DNA of 64,000 nt from Flavobacteriales bacterium (GTDB lineage Bacteria; Bacteroidota; Bacteroidia; Flavobacteriales_F; PHOS-HE28). Under the pieces are notes generated by a model that was given only the letters and a program-made list of their open reading frames with translations, was not told where the DNA came from and did no database searches. Positions 25,307-31,812 of this stretch are shown here, piece by piece. The number at the start of each line of letters is the position of its first letter. The stretch's first letter is position 1. The stretch is from assembly GCA_038234075.1 (NCBI GenBank), contig JBBSUV010000001.1, forward strand, positions 93,925 to 157,924, written 5' to 3'. A program made the translations under genes and the position numbers.

Positions 25307-26434
25307 ATGAAGCCCATCCAGATGGTCGATCTTGTCGGCCAATACGAAAAGATCAAACCCGAAGTGGATGCCGCTTTGTTGGATGTGATCGCGGGTGCGG
25401 CATTCATCAATGGCCCGGAAGTGAAGGCCTTCGAAAAGGAACTGGCAGCCTACCTTGGAGTGAAGCATGTGATCCCTTGCGGCAATGGTACAGACGCCCT
25501 ACAAGTGGCCATGATGGCCTTGGGGCTGAAGCCGGGCGATGAGGTGATCACCGCCTCGTTCACCTTCGTGGCCACGGTGGAAGTGCTGGCGCTGCTCGGC
25601 CTCGTGCCCGTCTTTGCCGATGTGTTCCCCGGAACCTTCAACATGGACCCCGCCGATGTGGCGCGCAAAGTGACCCCGAAGACCAAGGCCATCGTGCCCG
25701 TGCATCTCTTCGGTCAATCCGCTGACATGGACGCGATGATGGCGATCGCCAGGGAATACAAGTTGCACGTGGTGGAGGACGCCTGCCAGTCCATCGGCTC
25801 GGACCACAGCGGTGCGAACGGCAAACGCAAGTCCGGCGCCATCGGCGACATCGGCGTCACCAGCTTCTTCCCCAGCAAGAACCTCGGCTGCTACGGGGAC
25901 GGTGGCGCACTCTTCACGAACGATGATGAACTGGCGCACAAGATCCGCCGCGTATGCAACCACGGCAGCGATGAACGCTACTACCATGAAGTGGTGGGCG
26001 TGAATAGCCGATTGGATTCATTGCAAGCGGCCGTGTTGCGGATCAAACTGCGGCACCTCAACGAATACGCCAAGGCGCGCAGTGTTGCCGCTGCAGCCTA
26101 TGACAATGCATTCTCCGGGATCGAAGGCGTCAGCGTTCCTGAACGCAGTTCCTTCAGTACCCACGTCTTTCACCAATACACCCTTCGGATCGCCAAGGGT
26201 CGGCGGGATGAGCTGAAAAAGCACCTGGAAGCGGCTGGCGTGCCGGCGATGGTCTACTATCCCGTGCCGTGCCATCTACAGAACGCGTACAAGAGCGAGC
26301 GCTTCCCTGCCGGATCACTGCCGGTGACGGAATCACTGATCACGGAAGTGATCTCACTCCCCATGAGCACCGAACTGGACAACGATCAACTCACCCACAT
26401 CACCACAGCGGTGAAGAGCTTCTTCAACGCATAA
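25307..26434 (+). CDS. DegT/DnrJ/EryC1/StrS family PLP-dependent sugar aminotransferase
   Basis: Fold-type I aminotransferase of the WecE/ArnB class (GNGTDAL motif, SFF.SKNL lysine region). Confidence 0.85.
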   Translation: MKPIQMVDLVGQYEKIKPEVDAALLDVIAGAAFINGPEVKAFEKELAAYLGVKHVIPCGNGTDALQVAMMALGLKPGDEVITASFTFVATVEVLALLGLVPVFADVFPGTFNMDPADVARKVTPKTKAIVPVHLFGQSADMDAMMAIAREYKLHVVEDACQSIGSDHSGANGKRKSGAIGDIGVTSFFPSKNLGCYGDGGALFTNDDELAHKIRRVCNHGSDERYYHEVVGVNSRLDSLQAAVLRIKLRHLNEYAKARSVAAAAYDNAFSGIEGVSVPERSSFSTHVFHQYTLRIAKGRRDELKKHLEAAGVPAMVYYPVPCHLQNAYKSERFPAGSLPVTESLITEVISLPMSTELDNDQLTHITTAVKSFFNA

Positions 26435-26495
26435 CAAGATCCCCAGCGAGAGGATGAGCGCGCCGATGTAAGGGCGCGAGATCTCGCGCCCCAAC

Positions 26496-27827
26496 ATGAA
26501 CATAGCAGTAGTAGGAACTGGATACGTAGGCCTGGTAACGGGCACTTGCTTCGCCGAGACCGGCAACAACGTGATATGCGTCGACATCGACAAGGAGAAG
26601 GTGCAGAAGCTGAAGGACGGGAAGGTCCCGATCTATGAGCCCCATCTGGACGTGCTGTTCGAGCGCAACATCCGCCAAGGCCGCTTGGTCTTCACCACGG
26701 ATCTGAAGGAGGCTGTCGACAAAGCGCAGATCATCTTCTTGGCCCTTCCCACGCCTCCCGGCGAGGACGGCAGCGCCGACCTGAAGTATGTGCTGGGCGT
26801 GGCAGATGACCTGGGCAAGATCATCACCGACTACAAGGTGATCGTGGACAAGAGCACGGTTCCCGTAGGCACTGCCGAAAAGGTGCGTGCAGCCGTGGCC
26901 AAGCATGCCAAGGTCCCCTTCGATGTGGTGAGCAACCCGGAATTCCTGCGGGAAGGTTTCGCAGTGGACGACTTCCTGAAACCGGACCGGGTGGTGGTGG
27001 GCACCAGCAGCGCGCGTGCACAGAAGGTGATGGAGGACCTCTACAAGCCTTTCGTGCGGCAGGGCAACCCCATCATCTTCATGGATGAGCGCAGCGCCGA
27101 ACTCACGAAGTACGCGGCCAACGCCTTCCTCGCGGCCAAGATCACCTTCATGAACGAGATCGCGAACTTCTGCGAGGCTGTGGGCGCGGACGTGGACAAG
27201 GTGCGCATCGGCATCGGAAGCGACAGCCGGATCGGCAAGCGCTTCCTCTTCCCCGGGATCGGCTACGGCGGCTCTTGCTTCCCCAAGGACGTACAGGCTT
27301 TGGCCAAGAGCGGGAAGGACGCCGGCTATCAGTTCCAGATCATCGATAGCGTGATGAAGGTGAACGAGCGCCAGAAGACCACGCTCACGGACAAGGTGAA
27401 GGCGCACTACGGTGAGGACCTGCGCGGAAAGCATTTCGCGCTTTGGGGCCTGGCTTTCAAGCCGGACACGGACGATATCCGCGAAGCTCCGGCGCTTTAC
27501 ATGATCGATGCGCTCCTGGAGGCAGGCGCCACGGTCACCACCTTCGACCCCGAGGCCATGGACAACGTCCGGAAGCTGATCGGTGACAAGGTGACTTATG
27601 CCAATGACGAATACGCGGCGCTTGAGGGTGCCGATGCGCTGATCATCGCTACGGAATGGGCGCTGTTCCGCACGCCCGACATGGCCCGCGTGGAAAAAGC
27701 CCTGAAGGAAAAGATCATCTTCGATGGCCGCAATCTCTACGACCTCGACGAGATGAAGGATCTCGGCTACCACTACGTGAGCGTAGGGCGGCAGCCGGTG
27801 AACGCACCCATCAAAATGAAAGCCTGA
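26496..27827 (+). CDS. ugd: UDP-glucose 6-dehydrogenase
   Basis: [12 protein letters not shown] Rossmann N-terminus, catalytic GGSCFPKD motif. Confidence 0.9.
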
Positions 27828-27828
27828 A

Positions 27829-28920
27829 ATGGTGAAGAAGAGCACCGCAAAACCTGCAAAGGTCAAAGCATCGCCACAGAGTACTAAGCCTGCGGCAAAG
27901 CGGGGACGGATGAGCGTGGTGAAGCCTGCCGAGAAAGAGCGCGTGCTGATCACCGGGGCTGCGGGTTTTCTGGGCTCCCATCTGTGCGACCGGTTCTTGA
28001 AGGAGGGGTATCACGTGATCGCGATGGACAACCTGATCACCGGCCGCCTGAAGAACATCGAGCACCTGTTCAAGCGGAGCGATTTCGAATTCTACCATCA
28101 CGACGTTTCCAAGTTCGTGCATGTGCCCGGCAAGCTCAAGTACATCATGCACTTCGCCTCGCCCGCAAGCCCGATCGACTACCTGAAGATCCCCATCCAG
28201 ACGCTGAAAGTGAGTTCCTTGGGCACACACAATCTGCTCGGACTTGCCCTGCAGAAAAAGGCGCGCATCCTGGTGGCCAGCACCAGCGAGGTATACGGAG
28301 ACCCACAGGTGCATCCACAGACAGAGAGCTATTGGGGCCACGTGAACACCGTGGGTCCACGCGGCGTGTACGACGAGGCCAAGCGTTTCCAGGAGGCCAT
28401 CACCATGGCCTATCACACCTATCATGGATTGGAGACGCGCATCGTGCGGATCTTCAACACCTACGGCCCACGCATGCGCCTCAACGACGGCCGGGTGCTA
28501 CCGGCATTCATCGGTCAAGCGCTTCGCGGTGAAGACCTCACCATCTTCGGCAAGGGCAACCAAACGCGCAGCTTCTGCTATGTGAGCGACCTGATCGAAG
28601 GCATCTACCGTCTGCTGAAGAGCGATTGCTCAGACCCCGTGAACATCGGCAACCCGGCGGAGATCACCATCAAGCAGTTCGCCCAGGAGATCGTGAAGCT
28701 GACCGGAACCAAGCAGAAGCTGGTCTACAAGCCGCTTCCACAGGACGATCCCATGCAGCGCCAGCCGGACATCACCTTGGCCAAGAAGCTGCTGAAGTGG
28801 CAACCGAAGATCTCCCGCGCCGAAGGCTTGAAGATCACCTACGCTTATTTCAAGGGCCTTTCAGCTGCGGAACTCCACGAGAAGGACCACAATTCCTTCG
28901 AGGGATACGTGCGAAAGTGA
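27829..28920 (+). CDS. UDP-glucuronate decarboxylase (UDP-xylose synthase, SDR family) with Lys/Ala/Pro-rich N-terminal extension
   Basis: [12 protein letters not shown] Rossmann motif, YxxxK motif, UXS-like conservation. Translationally coupled to ugd (2-bp gap). Confidence 0.8.
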
Positions 28921-29040
28921 GGGTTTAGTTGATAGGTGTTGCAGCGTTGTCTTCGCTCGTGACTGATCTGGCGAGTGTGGACCATTCCTCACGGGTGAAA
29001 GGCATCCGCGCCGAATTTGAGGATTGCTTAACTTTACCTG

Positions 29041-29496
29041 ATGCAGACGTTCGATATACGGTTCGACCCGGCATTGGCCACTTCCGCGTTAATGCGCTCG
29101 CTCGAAGGTGTCCATCTGCAACGTGGTGACCATGTATGCGTATCGACTTTGTACAAACCTTCCCAAGCGGAACTTTACACATTACTCCTTGTCATTGCCA
29201 ACTCGATCGCCAAGGGCATGGATGCGCGGAAGGAAAGAGACGGCGCCCGGGCAAAAGGCGAGTATTTGCTGAAGGACTTACTCTCCCAATATGGCAACGC
29301 CGAAGATCTCGAACGCGGCCTTGAACGCGAATATGGCGTGGAGATCACCGTTGTGACAAGGGATACGGAAGATTCGGATTGGCTGGCCCTGTCGTCAAAA
29401 GGGGCAGAAGCGGCCTATGGCGAGAACGAACCGGACTATTCCAATACTGAAGTCCGTGAACCCAACCCGTACTACCGCAAGCACGCCAGCGAATGA
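29041..29496 (+). CDS. Hypothetical protein, putative non-canonical antitoxin partner of the downstream PemK/MazF toxin
   Basis: ORF overlaps the toxin start (ATGA) in a local GC dip (about 52%, visual estimate). No recognisable antitoxin fold. The true start is uncertain (internal Mets at aa 18 and 60). Confidence 0.35.
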   Translation: MQTFDIRFDPALATSALMRSLEGVHLQRGDHVCVSTLYKPSQAELYTLLLVIANSIAKGMDARKERDGARAKGEYLLKDLLSQYGNAEDLERGLEREYGVEITVVTRDTEDSDWLALSSKGAEAAYGENEPDYSNTEVREPNPYYRKHASE

Positions 29497-29837
29497 TCGC
29501 AGGGAGCATCATTCTGCTGGACTTCGTTCAATCGAACGGGGTCGTGAAGAAGCGGCCAGCACTTGTGGTTGCCATATTACCGCGTTTCAGCGACCTCCTG
29601 CTAGCCGGTATCAGCACACAACTGCATCAAGCGATCCCACAGGTGGATATCGAGCTTCTCGACGGGCAACCTGGATTCAGGGACTCAGGCTTGAAACGAT
29701 CCAGCATTGTGAGATTGACACTATTGAGCCGGATCGAGCGCAAGGACCCAAGCATCTTTGGAACCATTGGCACCCTTGACCCTGCGCTACTGATCCGGGC
29801 GAAACGCAATTTAGCCGACCTGATCCTTCGAGCGTAG
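29493..29837 (+). CDS. PemK/MazF family toxin (type II TA endoribonuclease)
   Basis: KKRPALVVA ... GISTQL ... SIVRLT ... IGTLDPALL pattern matches PemK_toxin family members. Confidence 0.65.
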   Translation: MIAGSIILLDFVQSNGVVKKRPALVVAILPRFSDLLLAGISTQLHQAIPQVDIELLDGQPGFRDSGLKRSSIVRLTLLSRIERKDPSIFGTIGTLDPALLIRAKRNLADLILRA

Positions 29838-29851
29838 GGTACGGATCCGAA

Positions 29852-30790
29852 GTGACCGCTACGACCAATTTAAGCCCTGAACAAATCCTTATCAAAGTGA
29901 AGATGGACCACCCATCTCCGGCAGTGATCCGCGTTTGTGGCGTGCCCGAACCGTTCAATCTGCCGTGGCGGCTAGGCGTTGAGAGTGGCGCATTCCTTCT
30001 TGAAGGCATCGACCTGCAATGGCGGGATGTGCCCGAAGGCACGGGAGCCATGTGCCAGTTGTTGCAGAACGGAGCCACGGACCTGGCCGTGCTGGTGACC
30101 GAAGGTGCGGTGCGCGATGTGCTGGTCAGCAGCGGAAATTCCGTCGTGGCCACCTTGGTGGATTCACCGCTCCGATGGGGAGTACATGTGGGTTCAGGCA
30201 CCGATCTACAAACCCCGGCCGATCTGGTGGGCGTGCCTTTCGCTATCAGCCGCTTCAACAGTGGAAGCCACCTGATGGCCATGGTCTATGCAAAGCGCTT
30301 AGGCTGGACACCGAAGGAAAAGGACTTCATCGTGGTACACGACCTGGACGGCGCAGTGGCTCTGCTGAAAAGCCCGAGACCGGCAGTGTTCCTGTGGGAG
30401 CAGGCCATGACCGCCGCATTCGTGGAAGCTGGCGCACTGCGCATGGTGGACGTTATGGAAGCGTCATGGCCCGCCTTCACGGTGGTGGCCCGGAAGGAAT
30501 TCCATCACCGCCATCCGCAGGAAGTGGAGCGGGTGTTACGCATCGTCCGCGAACAGGCCAAGGCATTCACGGCCGGTCAGGGAGCTGCCGAGCAGGTGAC
30601 CACGCGTTATGGCCTGCCAGCAACCGAGGCCAGGCGTTGGTTTGCGGCCGTTCGCTGGAACACGGATGGCCGGATCGACCTTCCGTCCTTATCCCTTGCC
30701 GCACGGACGTTGGCCGAAGCGGGAATGCTGACGGGGGCACCACCGGAGGATCTCTGGGGGGATCGGCTCAAGGGAAGCGCCAATTCTTAA
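29852..30790 (+). CDS. NMT1/THI5-like (periplasmic-binding-protein fold) substrate-binding protein, cytoplasmic
   Basis: SsuA/NMT1-like layout with no signal peptide. Weak recollection-based assignment. Confidence 0.35.
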   Translation: MTATTNLSPEQILIKVKMDHPSPAVIRVCGVPEPFNLPWRLGVESGAFLLEGIDLQWRDVPEGTGAMCQLLQNGATDLAVLVTEGAVRDVLVSSGNSVVATLVDSPLRWGVHVGSGTDLQTPADLVGVPFAISRFNSGSHLMAMVYAKRLGWTPKEKDFIVVHDLDGAVALLKSPRPAVFLWEQAMTAAFVEAGALRMVDVMEASWPAFTVVARKEFHHRHPQEVERVLRIVREQAKAFTAGQGAAEQVTTRYGLPATEARRWFAAVRWNTDGRIDLPSLSLAARTLAEAGMLTGAPPEDLWGDRLKGSANS

Positions 30791-30812: not shown

Positions 30813-31652
30813 TCACAATTGTTTGACCAATCGGCCGCTCACTAGGAACCTGCCATTCACCGACAGGTTCAGGATGTAGGCCCCCGCAGGCAGTTCATGA
30901 ACATCCAGTTGCATCCCGTTTAACTCGTTCGCATTCACGACCATGCGCTTCAAGGTCCGACCCTGCAGATCGGTGATCGATATCTCAATCACCCCGGAGA
31001 GCCAACCTTCCACACCTGTCATTTGCACCGTGACCTGATCGGACGAGGGAACAGGCCGGACCAACAAGTTGATCTGTTGTTCCAAGTTCTCCGATATGCC
31101 AACAGGGATCGAATGAAAAGTGCCGCATTCGACCGCACCCTTATTGAAATAAGTCAGATCAACACTCTGCCATTGATTGGTCTGGTCGCTGTATGTGTGT
31201 GAATAGGGACCTCCGCAACCTTGAACAAACCGACTATATCCATAGTTAGGTCCCAAGTCGTCACCTGTTCCAATTTCCCAAACGGCCATACCACACATTC
31301 CGGGGTTGACGTAGAGTGTGTCGTACTGCATCTCCCACTGCCAGGCAGGCTCGTCAAGTGAGAAGTAGGTCGTCGAGATGACCTGATCTGAAAAGCCGGG
31401 GGGGAGTCCGGGGCCGCTGGGAGGGGTGTAGGTTAAGCGATGTATTCCATAATTCACCGTATCACCAGCGGGAGAATCGGTCCTTTCCAAGATGGTCGCC
31501 GTTATCGTGGTAGGAGGACCATTACTATAAGTGGTCGTAGATTGAAATACATCCCCCACCTCGAAGTCATATACCTCGCCCGTGGTAAGCCCTTGGCCCA
31601 GCGCAAACTGGGCGAAAAACAGGAACAGGATAAGGATCCAATACCGGTTCAT
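30813..31652 (-). CDS. T9SS C-terminal-sorting-domain secreted protein
   Basis: Signal peptide MNRYWILILFLFFAQFALGQG. C-terminal about 80 aa matches the Por/T9SS CTD (…AGAYILNLSVNGRFLVSGRLVKQ). Confidence 0.65.
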   Translation of the reverse strand: MNRYWILILFLFFAQFALGQGLTTGEVYDFEVGDVFQSTTTYSNGPPTTITATILERTDSPAGDTVNYGIHRLTYTPPSGPGLPPGFSDQVISTTYFSLDEPAWQWEMQYDTLYVNPGMCGMAVWEIGTGDDLGPNYGYSRFVQGCGGPYSHTYSDQTNQWQSVDLTYFNKGAVECGTFHSIPVGISENLEQQINLLVRPVPSSDQVTVQMTGVEGWLSGVIEISITDLQGRTLKRMVVNANELNGMQLDVHELPAGAYILNLSVNGRFLVSGRLVKQL

Positions 31653-31812
31653 GATGTGTAATGTACGGAATACTTCACCCACTCCATCGGGGCCCGTTCT
31701 TGCACGCTCCCCCCTTGATCCCGGCAACTGCCCAAAAACGCCGTGCCATCGGTACATTCGCAGCCCCTAAAGCAGCTTGTCCGACCTTCCGGCCCTGCCC
31801 CTCTTTGCCCCC

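Follow-up and report, generated by a model that had tools for sequence, protein, structure and literature searches.

A MazF/PemK toxin and its probable 151-residue antitoxin in a nucleotide-sugar locus of a Flavobacteriales bacterium

In a 64,000-nucleotide stretch of a Flavobacteriales genome (GenBank assembly GCA_038234075.1, contig JBBSUV010000001.1, positions 93,925 to 157,924; hereafter the window, in whose numbering coordinates are given), a nucleotide-sugar locus is split by two small genes, of which the downstream one resembles PemK/MazF toxins and the upstream one encodes a 151-amino-acid (aa) protein with no match in Pfam, NCBIfam, or PDB sequences. Is the upstream gene the antitoxin of this toxin or an unrelated neighbor, and if it is an antitoxin, what kind is it? 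A preliminary description of the sequence had offered both answers, an undescribed antitoxin family or a toxin captured beside an unrelated gene. Here, searches for relatives, structural models, and tests of selection indicate that the two genes most probably form a chromosomal type II toxin-antitoxin (TA) operon, with the 151-aa protein as the cognate antitoxin that would bind and neutralize the toxin. What is new is the antitoxin, which joins a shared C-terminal tail to an undescribed module; the toxin is ordinary.

An ordinary MazF/PemK toxin

The open reading frames (ORFs) were confirmed as first described, including their ATGA junction: the stop codon of the antitoxin gene and the start codon of the toxin gene overlap by four bases (29493-29496), both genes on the plus strand. 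The locus thus has the arrangement of a type II TA system, with two small, adjacent, co-oriented, and overlapping genes and the antitoxin first. The 114-aa product matched PF02452 (PemK_toxin) at 28.5 bits (cut-off, 23.1) over profile positions 3 to 108 of 109, in keeping with the family assigned in the preliminary description; no NCBIfam model matched. Its AlphaFold2 (AF2) model, built from an alignment of 15 relatives (mean predicted local distance difference test score [pLDDT], 92.5; predicted template modeling score [pTM], 0.85), has the MazF/CcdB-like SH3-barrel fold: in a Foldseek comparison with solved structures, MazF-mt3 of Mycobacterium tuberculosis (5hkc_B; E value, 4e-7; template modeling [TM] score, 0.75) and the MazF proteins of Bacillus subtilis (4me7), Staphylococcus aureus, and Escherichia coli all matched with probability 1.00 and TM scores of 0.68 to 0.76, at sequence identities of only 14 to 24%.

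A hidden Markov model (HMM) of the toxin subfamily matched B. subtilis EndoA/MazF (4me7/4mdx) at an E value of 1.6e-5. In that alignment toxin residues Arg21 and Ser41 fall on Arg25 and Thr48 of the B. subtilis enzyme, which are reported to be its catalytic pair in MazF-RNA structure work. Among 88 subfamily toxins, 87 have Arg at position 21, 84 have Ser and 3 have Thr at position 41, and 85 have Thr or Ser at position 42; K19, R21, P22, S41, and D52 each occur in at least 84 of them, and none is missing from the window toxin. A lack of catalytic residues, which the preliminary description had named as a refuting result, was thus not observed. The ratio of nonsynonymous to synonymous substitution rates (dN/dS; Nei-Gojobori method, window against the homologous locus L001, as throughout) was 0.07 for the toxin gene. 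By family, fold, and conserved residues, the protein is an ordinary MazF/PemK toxin, predicted to cut RNA, and it belongs to a distinct, widespread subfamily with the signature K-x-RPALV ... ISTQLHQ.

Toxin and antitoxin genes stay together across divergent relatives

A word-indexed search of 5.8 billion proteins returned only four close relatives of the 151-aa protein (100, 89, 87, and 71% identity), all of 151 aa and aligned without gaps; a fifth homologue, on JGI contig L004, is 48% identical across all 151 residues, again without gaps. The wider family was collected with HMMER, a four-sequence profile (the window protein and close relatives; E ≤ 1e-3) being run exhaustively against 1.84 billion cluster representatives. 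The 142 proteins found fall into about 55 of 134 to 157 aa, which align with residues 1 to ~147 (the long type), and about 85 of 42 to 100 aa, which match only query positions ~105 to 146.

Where the surroundings of long-type genes were legible, nearly all had a toxin gene of the one subfamily next to them on the downstream side. The order antitoxin-toxin, mostly with a short overlap, was seen in L001, L003, L004, L013, L014, and L016. A four-base overlap joins P0073 (134 aa) to a 101-aa PemK toxin, P0055 (142 aa) to a 110-aa PemK toxin, and P0175 (134 aa) to a 100-aa protein that matches the toxin subfamily HMM at 4.5e-28. All eight further long-type loci among the matches listed in a genome scan had the toxin downstream (L020, L021, L022, L025, L030, L032, L055, and L130). 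Of 12 full-length metagenome loci, 7 had a toxin (cut to 51 aa in two), 2 ran off the contig, and 3 lacked one, two of these (L141 and L142) carrying the same antitoxin sequence. In all, pairing was found in more than 20 long-type loci with differing neighbors, the exceptions being toxin stumps or losses, and it holds in relatives only 25 to 30% identical to the window antitoxin; homologues of the 151-aa ORF thus do co-occur with PemK toxins, a neighborhood check that the preliminary description had proposed. The metagenome copies in which the toxin is missing or cut to 51 aa (L139, L141/L142, L143, and L144) indicate recurrent toxin decay. A further truncated toxin, an ATGA-overlapping stump beginning MKGGDIVL, follows P0057 (146 aa; L010 3438-3560, also L011 and L012); the contigs with P0057 all end ~230 nt past this stump.

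The pair has also kept its chromosomal site. Loci L001, L003 (identical to the window), and L004 share the order UDP-glucose dehydrogenase, UXS-like epimerase, 151-aa gene, PemK toxin, PBP2_Ca3427-like gene, and further sugar genes, headed in L001 and L004 by an aminotransferase (L003 begins too late to show one), and the pair sits at this site in relatives down to 48 to 57% protein identity. DNA identity to L001 is 86% in the flanks and ~70% in the pair; to L004 it is 74 to 82% and 66 to 70%, respectively. Because the pair holds the same place in L001 and L004 despite the divergence of the flanks, these sequence comparisons mark it as an old resident, not a recent insertion, that evolves faster than its neighbors. 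Recent mobile insertion was considered and set aside: the window has no tRNA gene, the pair has no flanking direct repeats, no phage or defense-system family matches and no relative in viral contigs were found, and diverged relatives carry the pair at the same site. Also rejected was the PBP2_Ca3427-like gene as a third component, which follows the toxin only in the close lineage of the window (window, L001, L003, and L004) and is absent beside the pairs of distant relatives. Retention of a TA pair in a surface-polysaccharide cluster through long divergence fits the view that such modules stabilize or regulate variable surface loci.

A portable C-terminal tail

The last 40 or so residues of the antitoxin, with the motif W..LS..AYG.[DE]EP[DE]Y..EPNP, are its most constrained part (dN/dS, 0.08 over codons 109-151) and are disordered in the monomer model (pLDDT, 52 to 58). 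The same motif recurs in short antitoxins of many phyla. A DNA scan of one genome per species for sequences encoding EP[DE]Y-x6-EPNP found at least 119 loci, in Bacteroidota, Chloroflexota, Acidobacteriota, Ignavibacteria, Planctomycetota, Verrucomicrobiota, Deltaproteobacteria, and other groups. Among the matches listed, the next ORF matched the toxin subfamily HMM in 96 of 115 tail loci (E values, 1e-6 to 1e-41, mostly 1e-26 to 1e-41), and most of these toxin ORFs begin 1 to 19 bases before the end of the upstream ORF; where no toxin matched, the motif had arisen by chance in a large protein, the locus ended, or the locus had decayed.

Most upstream partners in these loci are 70 to 100 aa long and have the tail alone in common with the window protein; that of the 68-aa partner in L006, for example, is 37% identical to the window tail over 30 residues. 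Ten short partners were scanned against Pfam: one (L075) matched the MazE/AbrB family PF04014 above the cut-off (37 bits), two showed subthreshold likeness to Phd/YefM (L054; 26 bits) and to DUF2281 (L116), six had no match at E ≤ 0.1, and one had weak, unrelated matches only. Two tail-bearing antitoxin-toxin pairs stand in tandem in an Ignavibacteria genome (L047 6302-7080, minus strand), and one 95-aa protein from the representative search, P0129, has two tandem copies of the tail motif and could thereby occupy the two sites of a toxin dimer.

The tail is therefore a widespread portable module that presumably neutralizes the toxin. The C terminus of MazE is likewise acidic and intrinsically disordered and has a conserved Trp. 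By analogy, the acidic, Trp-containing tail of the window antitoxin (residues ~109 to 147), unstructured on its own, would cover the groove in which the toxin dimer binds RNA and neutralize the toxin, as the MazE C terminus does MazF. In other bacteria the tail is fused to unrelated short N-terminal domains and here to a predicted module of ~105 residues made of a strand-helix-strand unit, a long helix, and a helix-helix-strand unit. Named and delimited here, the tail of ~40 residues serves as a hallmark of the antitoxins that accompany one large MazF/PemK subfamily in many phyla, and the motif is directly usable for annotation, most such antitoxins being labeled "hypothetical protein" at present.

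The preliminary description had seen no resemblance to MazE-type antitoxins and had raised the prospect of an undescribed antitoxin family. Both statements stand for the first ~105 residues; neither does for the tail, which is shared with many short antitoxins, among them the one with a PF04014 domain.

The long-type antitoxin and its N-terminal module

The window protein is a full member of the long type, aligning end to end and carrying the G29-D30, LLxDLF, E.EYGI, and tail motifs. In an alignment of 47 full-length relatives, M1, G29, and N142 are invariant, and D30, W114, Y126, E130, E140, P141, and P143 are conserved in at least 90%. Named members (e.g., from Puia sp. and Chitinophagaceae) are labeled "hypothetical protein," and those with a taxonomic label are Bacteroidota. 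The 47 full-length members matched no antitoxin family in Pfam, no Pfam family recurred in more than two members, and the family profile found nothing below an E value of 0.01 among PDB sequences. The first 105 residues have no Pfam, NCBIfam, or PDB match and no solved relative; as far as these comparisons reach, they are an uncurated family.

The AF2 monomer model (26 aligned sequences; pLDDT, 74; pTM, 0.60) comprises strand 3-8, helix 14-20, strand 31-36, helices 42-67, 73-83, and 87-98, strand 101-106, and helix 109-125, followed by the disordered end. Neither Pfam nor a fold search detected a helix-turn-helix, ribbon-helix-helix (RHH), AbrB, or Phd domain, the SpoVT/AbrB swapped-hairpin domain (PF04014) was not found in the antitoxin, and DUF2281 (PF10047) matched neither the window protein, P0004, the L004 homologue, nor the isolated tail. 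Residues 1 to 40 matched the N-terminal module of one class of short antitoxin ("MKTVIIKIEKDNTLKQVLDFVKKLKLKV" and similar) with an hhalign probability of 89% over 26 columns, a short stretch that hints that the long type may have grown from a short strand-helix-strand antitoxin.

Database forms of 113 to 120 aa that start at the hydrophobic helix were considered as a sign that the N-terminal module is dispensable, and this was rejected. In L030 (4959-5406) such a form is a full-length, long-type gene split by a frameshift, with the N-terminal module in another frame; several of the other short forms may be the same artifact.

Known systems compared

The gene arrangement is that of MazE-MazF (E. 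coli chpA; B. subtilis EndoAI-EndoA, or YdcD-YdcE) and PemI-PemK/Kis-Kid, in which an upstream antitoxin gene overlaps that of a MazF-fold toxin of ~110 aa in the same way, and the aligned Arg and Ser/Thr residues of the window and B. subtilis toxins extend the likeness. The window antitoxin differs from those of these systems in its length (151 aa versus ~80 to 90 aa) and from MazE in its N-terminal 105 residues, which lack a PF04014, RHH, or swapped-hairpin match; most long-type relatives, moreover, have a transmembrane-like helix. Short tail-bearing antitoxins (70 to 100 aa; for example, L075, L054, and L116), most of which lack annotation themselves, have the same tail with the same toxin subfamily directly downstream, yet their N-terminal modules are of 30 to 45 residues and of several unrelated kinds, with neither the hydrophobic helix nor the helix-helix-strand unit.

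DUF2281 proteins (PF10047/COG5559) have been treated as antitoxins of PIN or PemK toxins, for example ssl0385, ssl2138, and ssr8013 of Synechocystis (PMC4963859), and a marine VapC/DUF2281 pair has been validated (PMC12654330). In our searches the gene before that of a Proteiniphilum relative of the window toxin (P0015; 43% identity) encodes a DUF2281 protein of 74 aa (30.6 bits), the tail of which, however, is different, and the window protein itself has no PF10047 match. Synechocystis also has PemK toxins with "hypothetical" partners (sll1130/ssl2245 and slr1062/slr1062a), the latter pair lying inside a long transcript of cell-surface genes, TU355 (PMC4963859); the likeness to the window is in layout, a PemK toxin with an unclassified upstream partner within a cell-surface operon.

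Alternative explanations

Three other readings of the pair were weighed. That the toxin landed beside an unrelated gene, its real antitoxin being missing, an RNA, or encoded elsewhere, might be suggested by the size of the 151-aa protein, about twice that usual for antitoxins, and by its lack of a Pfam or NCBIfam antitoxin match. Even so, we reject this alternative as exceedingly improbable because the pairing is conserved in relatives 25 to 30% identical to the window antitoxin and because the 40-residue tail is common to short antitoxins of the same toxin subfamily, one of them with a MazE/AbrB domain; the four-base overlap argues the same way. Scarcely more credible is a functional antitoxin of ~92 aa translated from an internal Met60, with the upstream part an untranslated leader. 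The preliminary description had allowed for such a start, and codon 60 is indeed an in-frame ATG that would give a product nearer the usual antitoxin size. In P0004, however, that residue is Ile, and in L004 it is Leu; the ~55 distant relatives align from residue 1, with Gly29 invariant and Asp30 at least 90% conserved; and dN/dS was 0.16 for the whole ORF and 0.14 for codons 1 to 40, over which synonymous change is saturated. Because Met60 is not conserved and codons 1 to 40 are under purifying selection, translation from M1 is well supported by these comparisons.

A domesticated or decaying remnant, with a harmless toxin and a 151-aa protein whose role is tied instead to the polysaccharide locus or to the adjacent solute-binding-fold gene, would account for a pair kept at one chromosomal site with the PBP2_Ca3427-like gene always next to it, for the loss of hydrophobic helix character in the window lineage, for toxins truncated or lost elsewhere in the family, and for the lack of a DNA-binding domain in the antitoxin by Pfam. 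The toxin is nevertheless under strong purifying selection and keeps every near-invariant residue of its subfamily, including R21, S41, and D52; within the antitoxin, constraint is greatest in the tail; and in distant relatives the PBP-like gene is not beside the pair. We regard this explanation as improbable. Three observations do weigh against a working TA operon of the usual kind: the pair diverges faster than its flanks, which would fit either rapid TA evolution or allele replacement; toxins are lost or truncated in some relatives, so that any given copy may be decaying; and the usual type II autoregulation is unsupported for an antitoxin with no recognizable DNA-binding domain. A cognate toxin-antitoxin pair nonetheless remains the reading that we favor.

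The hydrophobic helix

Hydrophobicity was measured as the Kyte-Doolittle (KD) maximum over 19 residues with a threshold of 1.6, and insertion energy on a crude scale lacking position weighting. In the segment around residues 42 to 60, KD exceeded 1.6 in 39 of 47 relatives and 2.5 in several, reaching 3.0 in both FALTAIVVVIIIAFVLVEL and LAVMVAAFIIMMVVVYAVV, after which KKK/RRK clusters follow. Across relatives Lys/Arg comes after the segment, its length differs, and hydrophobicity is its only conserved property, which looks like the signature of a single-pass anchor that would leave the C-terminal part of the protein in the cytoplasm, the compartment in which the toxin has to be bound. The window segment, QAELYTLLLVIANSIAKGM, has a KD of 0.95 and a crude insertion energy of +9.1 kcal/mol and is not transmembrane-like; the energies in close relatives were +12.9 for P0004 and an intermediate +3.8 for L004. 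The window lineage seems to have lost the anchor, its helix being too polar to span a membrane, and the window antitoxin is probably soluble.

We tentatively propose, at somewhat less than even odds, that most family members are single-pass proteins of the inner membrane (N terminus outside, C terminus inside) whose tail tethers a MazF-type RNase, with release through membrane proteolysis or the state of the envelope and not through soluble Lon or Clp, the window copy being an anchorless derivative. In the hydrophobic relatives the anchor would hold the tail and the bound toxin at the cytoplasmic face of the inner membrane. If anchoring is true, this would be an unusual control of a cytoplasmic RNase toxin, linking TA activation to the cell envelope; searches of the available literature for a membrane-bound antitoxin turned up no described case. 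Against an anchor, the N-terminal strands, the long helix, and strand 101-106 form one compact alpha/beta domain in the AF2 monomer, and if this packing is valid for the hydrophobic relatives, the helix would be buried core and not a membrane anchor. The family helix would then be a buried core or oligomerization helix of a soluble domain and the window protein typical, not derived. We consider this rather unlikely in view of the strong hydrophobicity of FALTAIVVVIIIAFVLVEL and LAVMVAAFIIMMVVVYAVV, the basic clusters after them, the variable length, and the lack of conservation beyond hydrophobicity. Possible membrane anchoring is the most interesting lead from this locus, and it concerns the relatives more than the window copy.

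Locus layout and composition

The features of the locus are collected in Table 1. As first described, sugar genes lie on both sides of the pair: UDP-glucose dehydrogenase and a UXS-like epimerase upstream, and a hexapeptide transferase, a GFO/IDH/MocA oxidoreductase, and a UDP-sugar dehydrogenase downstream. The lower GC content reported for the pair was confirmed in direction and overstated in size (52 to 53% against 62% had been estimated): positions 28921 to 29850 have 54.2% GC, at the 5.7th percentile of same-size stretches of the window (58.7 ± 2.5%), and the flanking sugar genes have 58 to 60%. The gap widens at third codon positions, with a GC fraction of 0.60 and 0.64 in the pair versus 0.82 and 0.79 in the two upstream sugar genes.

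Table 1. Features of the toxin-antitoxin locus and its neighbors, in window coordinates
Feature	Position	Strand	Basis or remark
Spacer between the UXS-like epimerase gene and the antitoxin gene, presumed promoter and leader	28921..29040	+	120 nt
Antitoxin gene, 151 aa, long type, ATG start	29041..29496	+	ORF list, relatives, dN/dS
Antitoxin residues 1-40, strand-helix-strand module	29041..29160	+	E3-8, H14-20, E31-36 (E, strand; H, helix); pLDDT 77-86; invariant Gly29, near-invariant Asp30
Antitoxin residues 42-67, long helix	29164..29241	+	Model pLDDT 86-89; corresponds to transmembrane-like segment of most relatives
Antitoxin residues 73-106, helix-helix-strand (LLxDLF ... E.EYGI.I)	29257..29358	+	H73-83, H87-98, E101-106; conserved across the long family
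Antitoxin residues 109-147, acidic tail (W114..LS..AYG.nEPDYS..V.EPNP.Y), presumed toxin-binding element	29365..29481	+	Conservation, dN/dS
Toxin gene, 114 aa, ATG start, MazF/PemK fold	29493..29837	+	PF02452, AF2 model
Toxin Arg21 codon	29553..29555	+	Aligned with Arg25 of B. subtilis MazF (HMM alignment to 4me7/4mdx)
Toxin Ser41-Thr42 codons (ISTQL motif)	29613..29618	+	Ser41 aligned with Thr48 of B. subtilis MazF
PBP2_Ca3427-like / SsuA-like solute-binding-fold gene	29852-30790 (gene callers: start 29903)	+	Directly 3' of toxin
Protein with type IX secretion system (T9SS) C-terminal sorting domain	30813-31757	-	Low third-position GC (0.55); sorting domain points to Bacteroidota or allies

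In the spacer upstream of the antitoxin gene (28921-29040), no repeat or operator-like palindrome stands out, and no sigma-70-like promoter was found on its plus strand. The GTTGTC/GATAGG motif block that the preliminary description took for a left boundary dissolved on counting: each motif occurs once in the spacer, and they occur 18 and 8 times, respectively, in the window, with no repeat structure. The corresponding spacer of L001 is ~400 nt long, against 120 nt here, and shares with it only TTA[AG]CTTTACC, just 5' of the ATG. It contains an extra 76-aa ORF (L001 5703-5933), which was considered as a lost part of the window module and rejected, since it matches no family and nothing like it is seen in the window.

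Long antisense ORFs also occur in the window, for example one of 509 aa opposite UDP-glucose dehydrogenase (26424-27953, minus strand); they probably arise only because third-position GC is high in the sense genes (~0.8) and are not real genes. The slot downstream within the nucleotide-sugar locus is variable, being occupied by the T9SS gene in the window, by an 835-aa gene in L001, and by nothing in L004.

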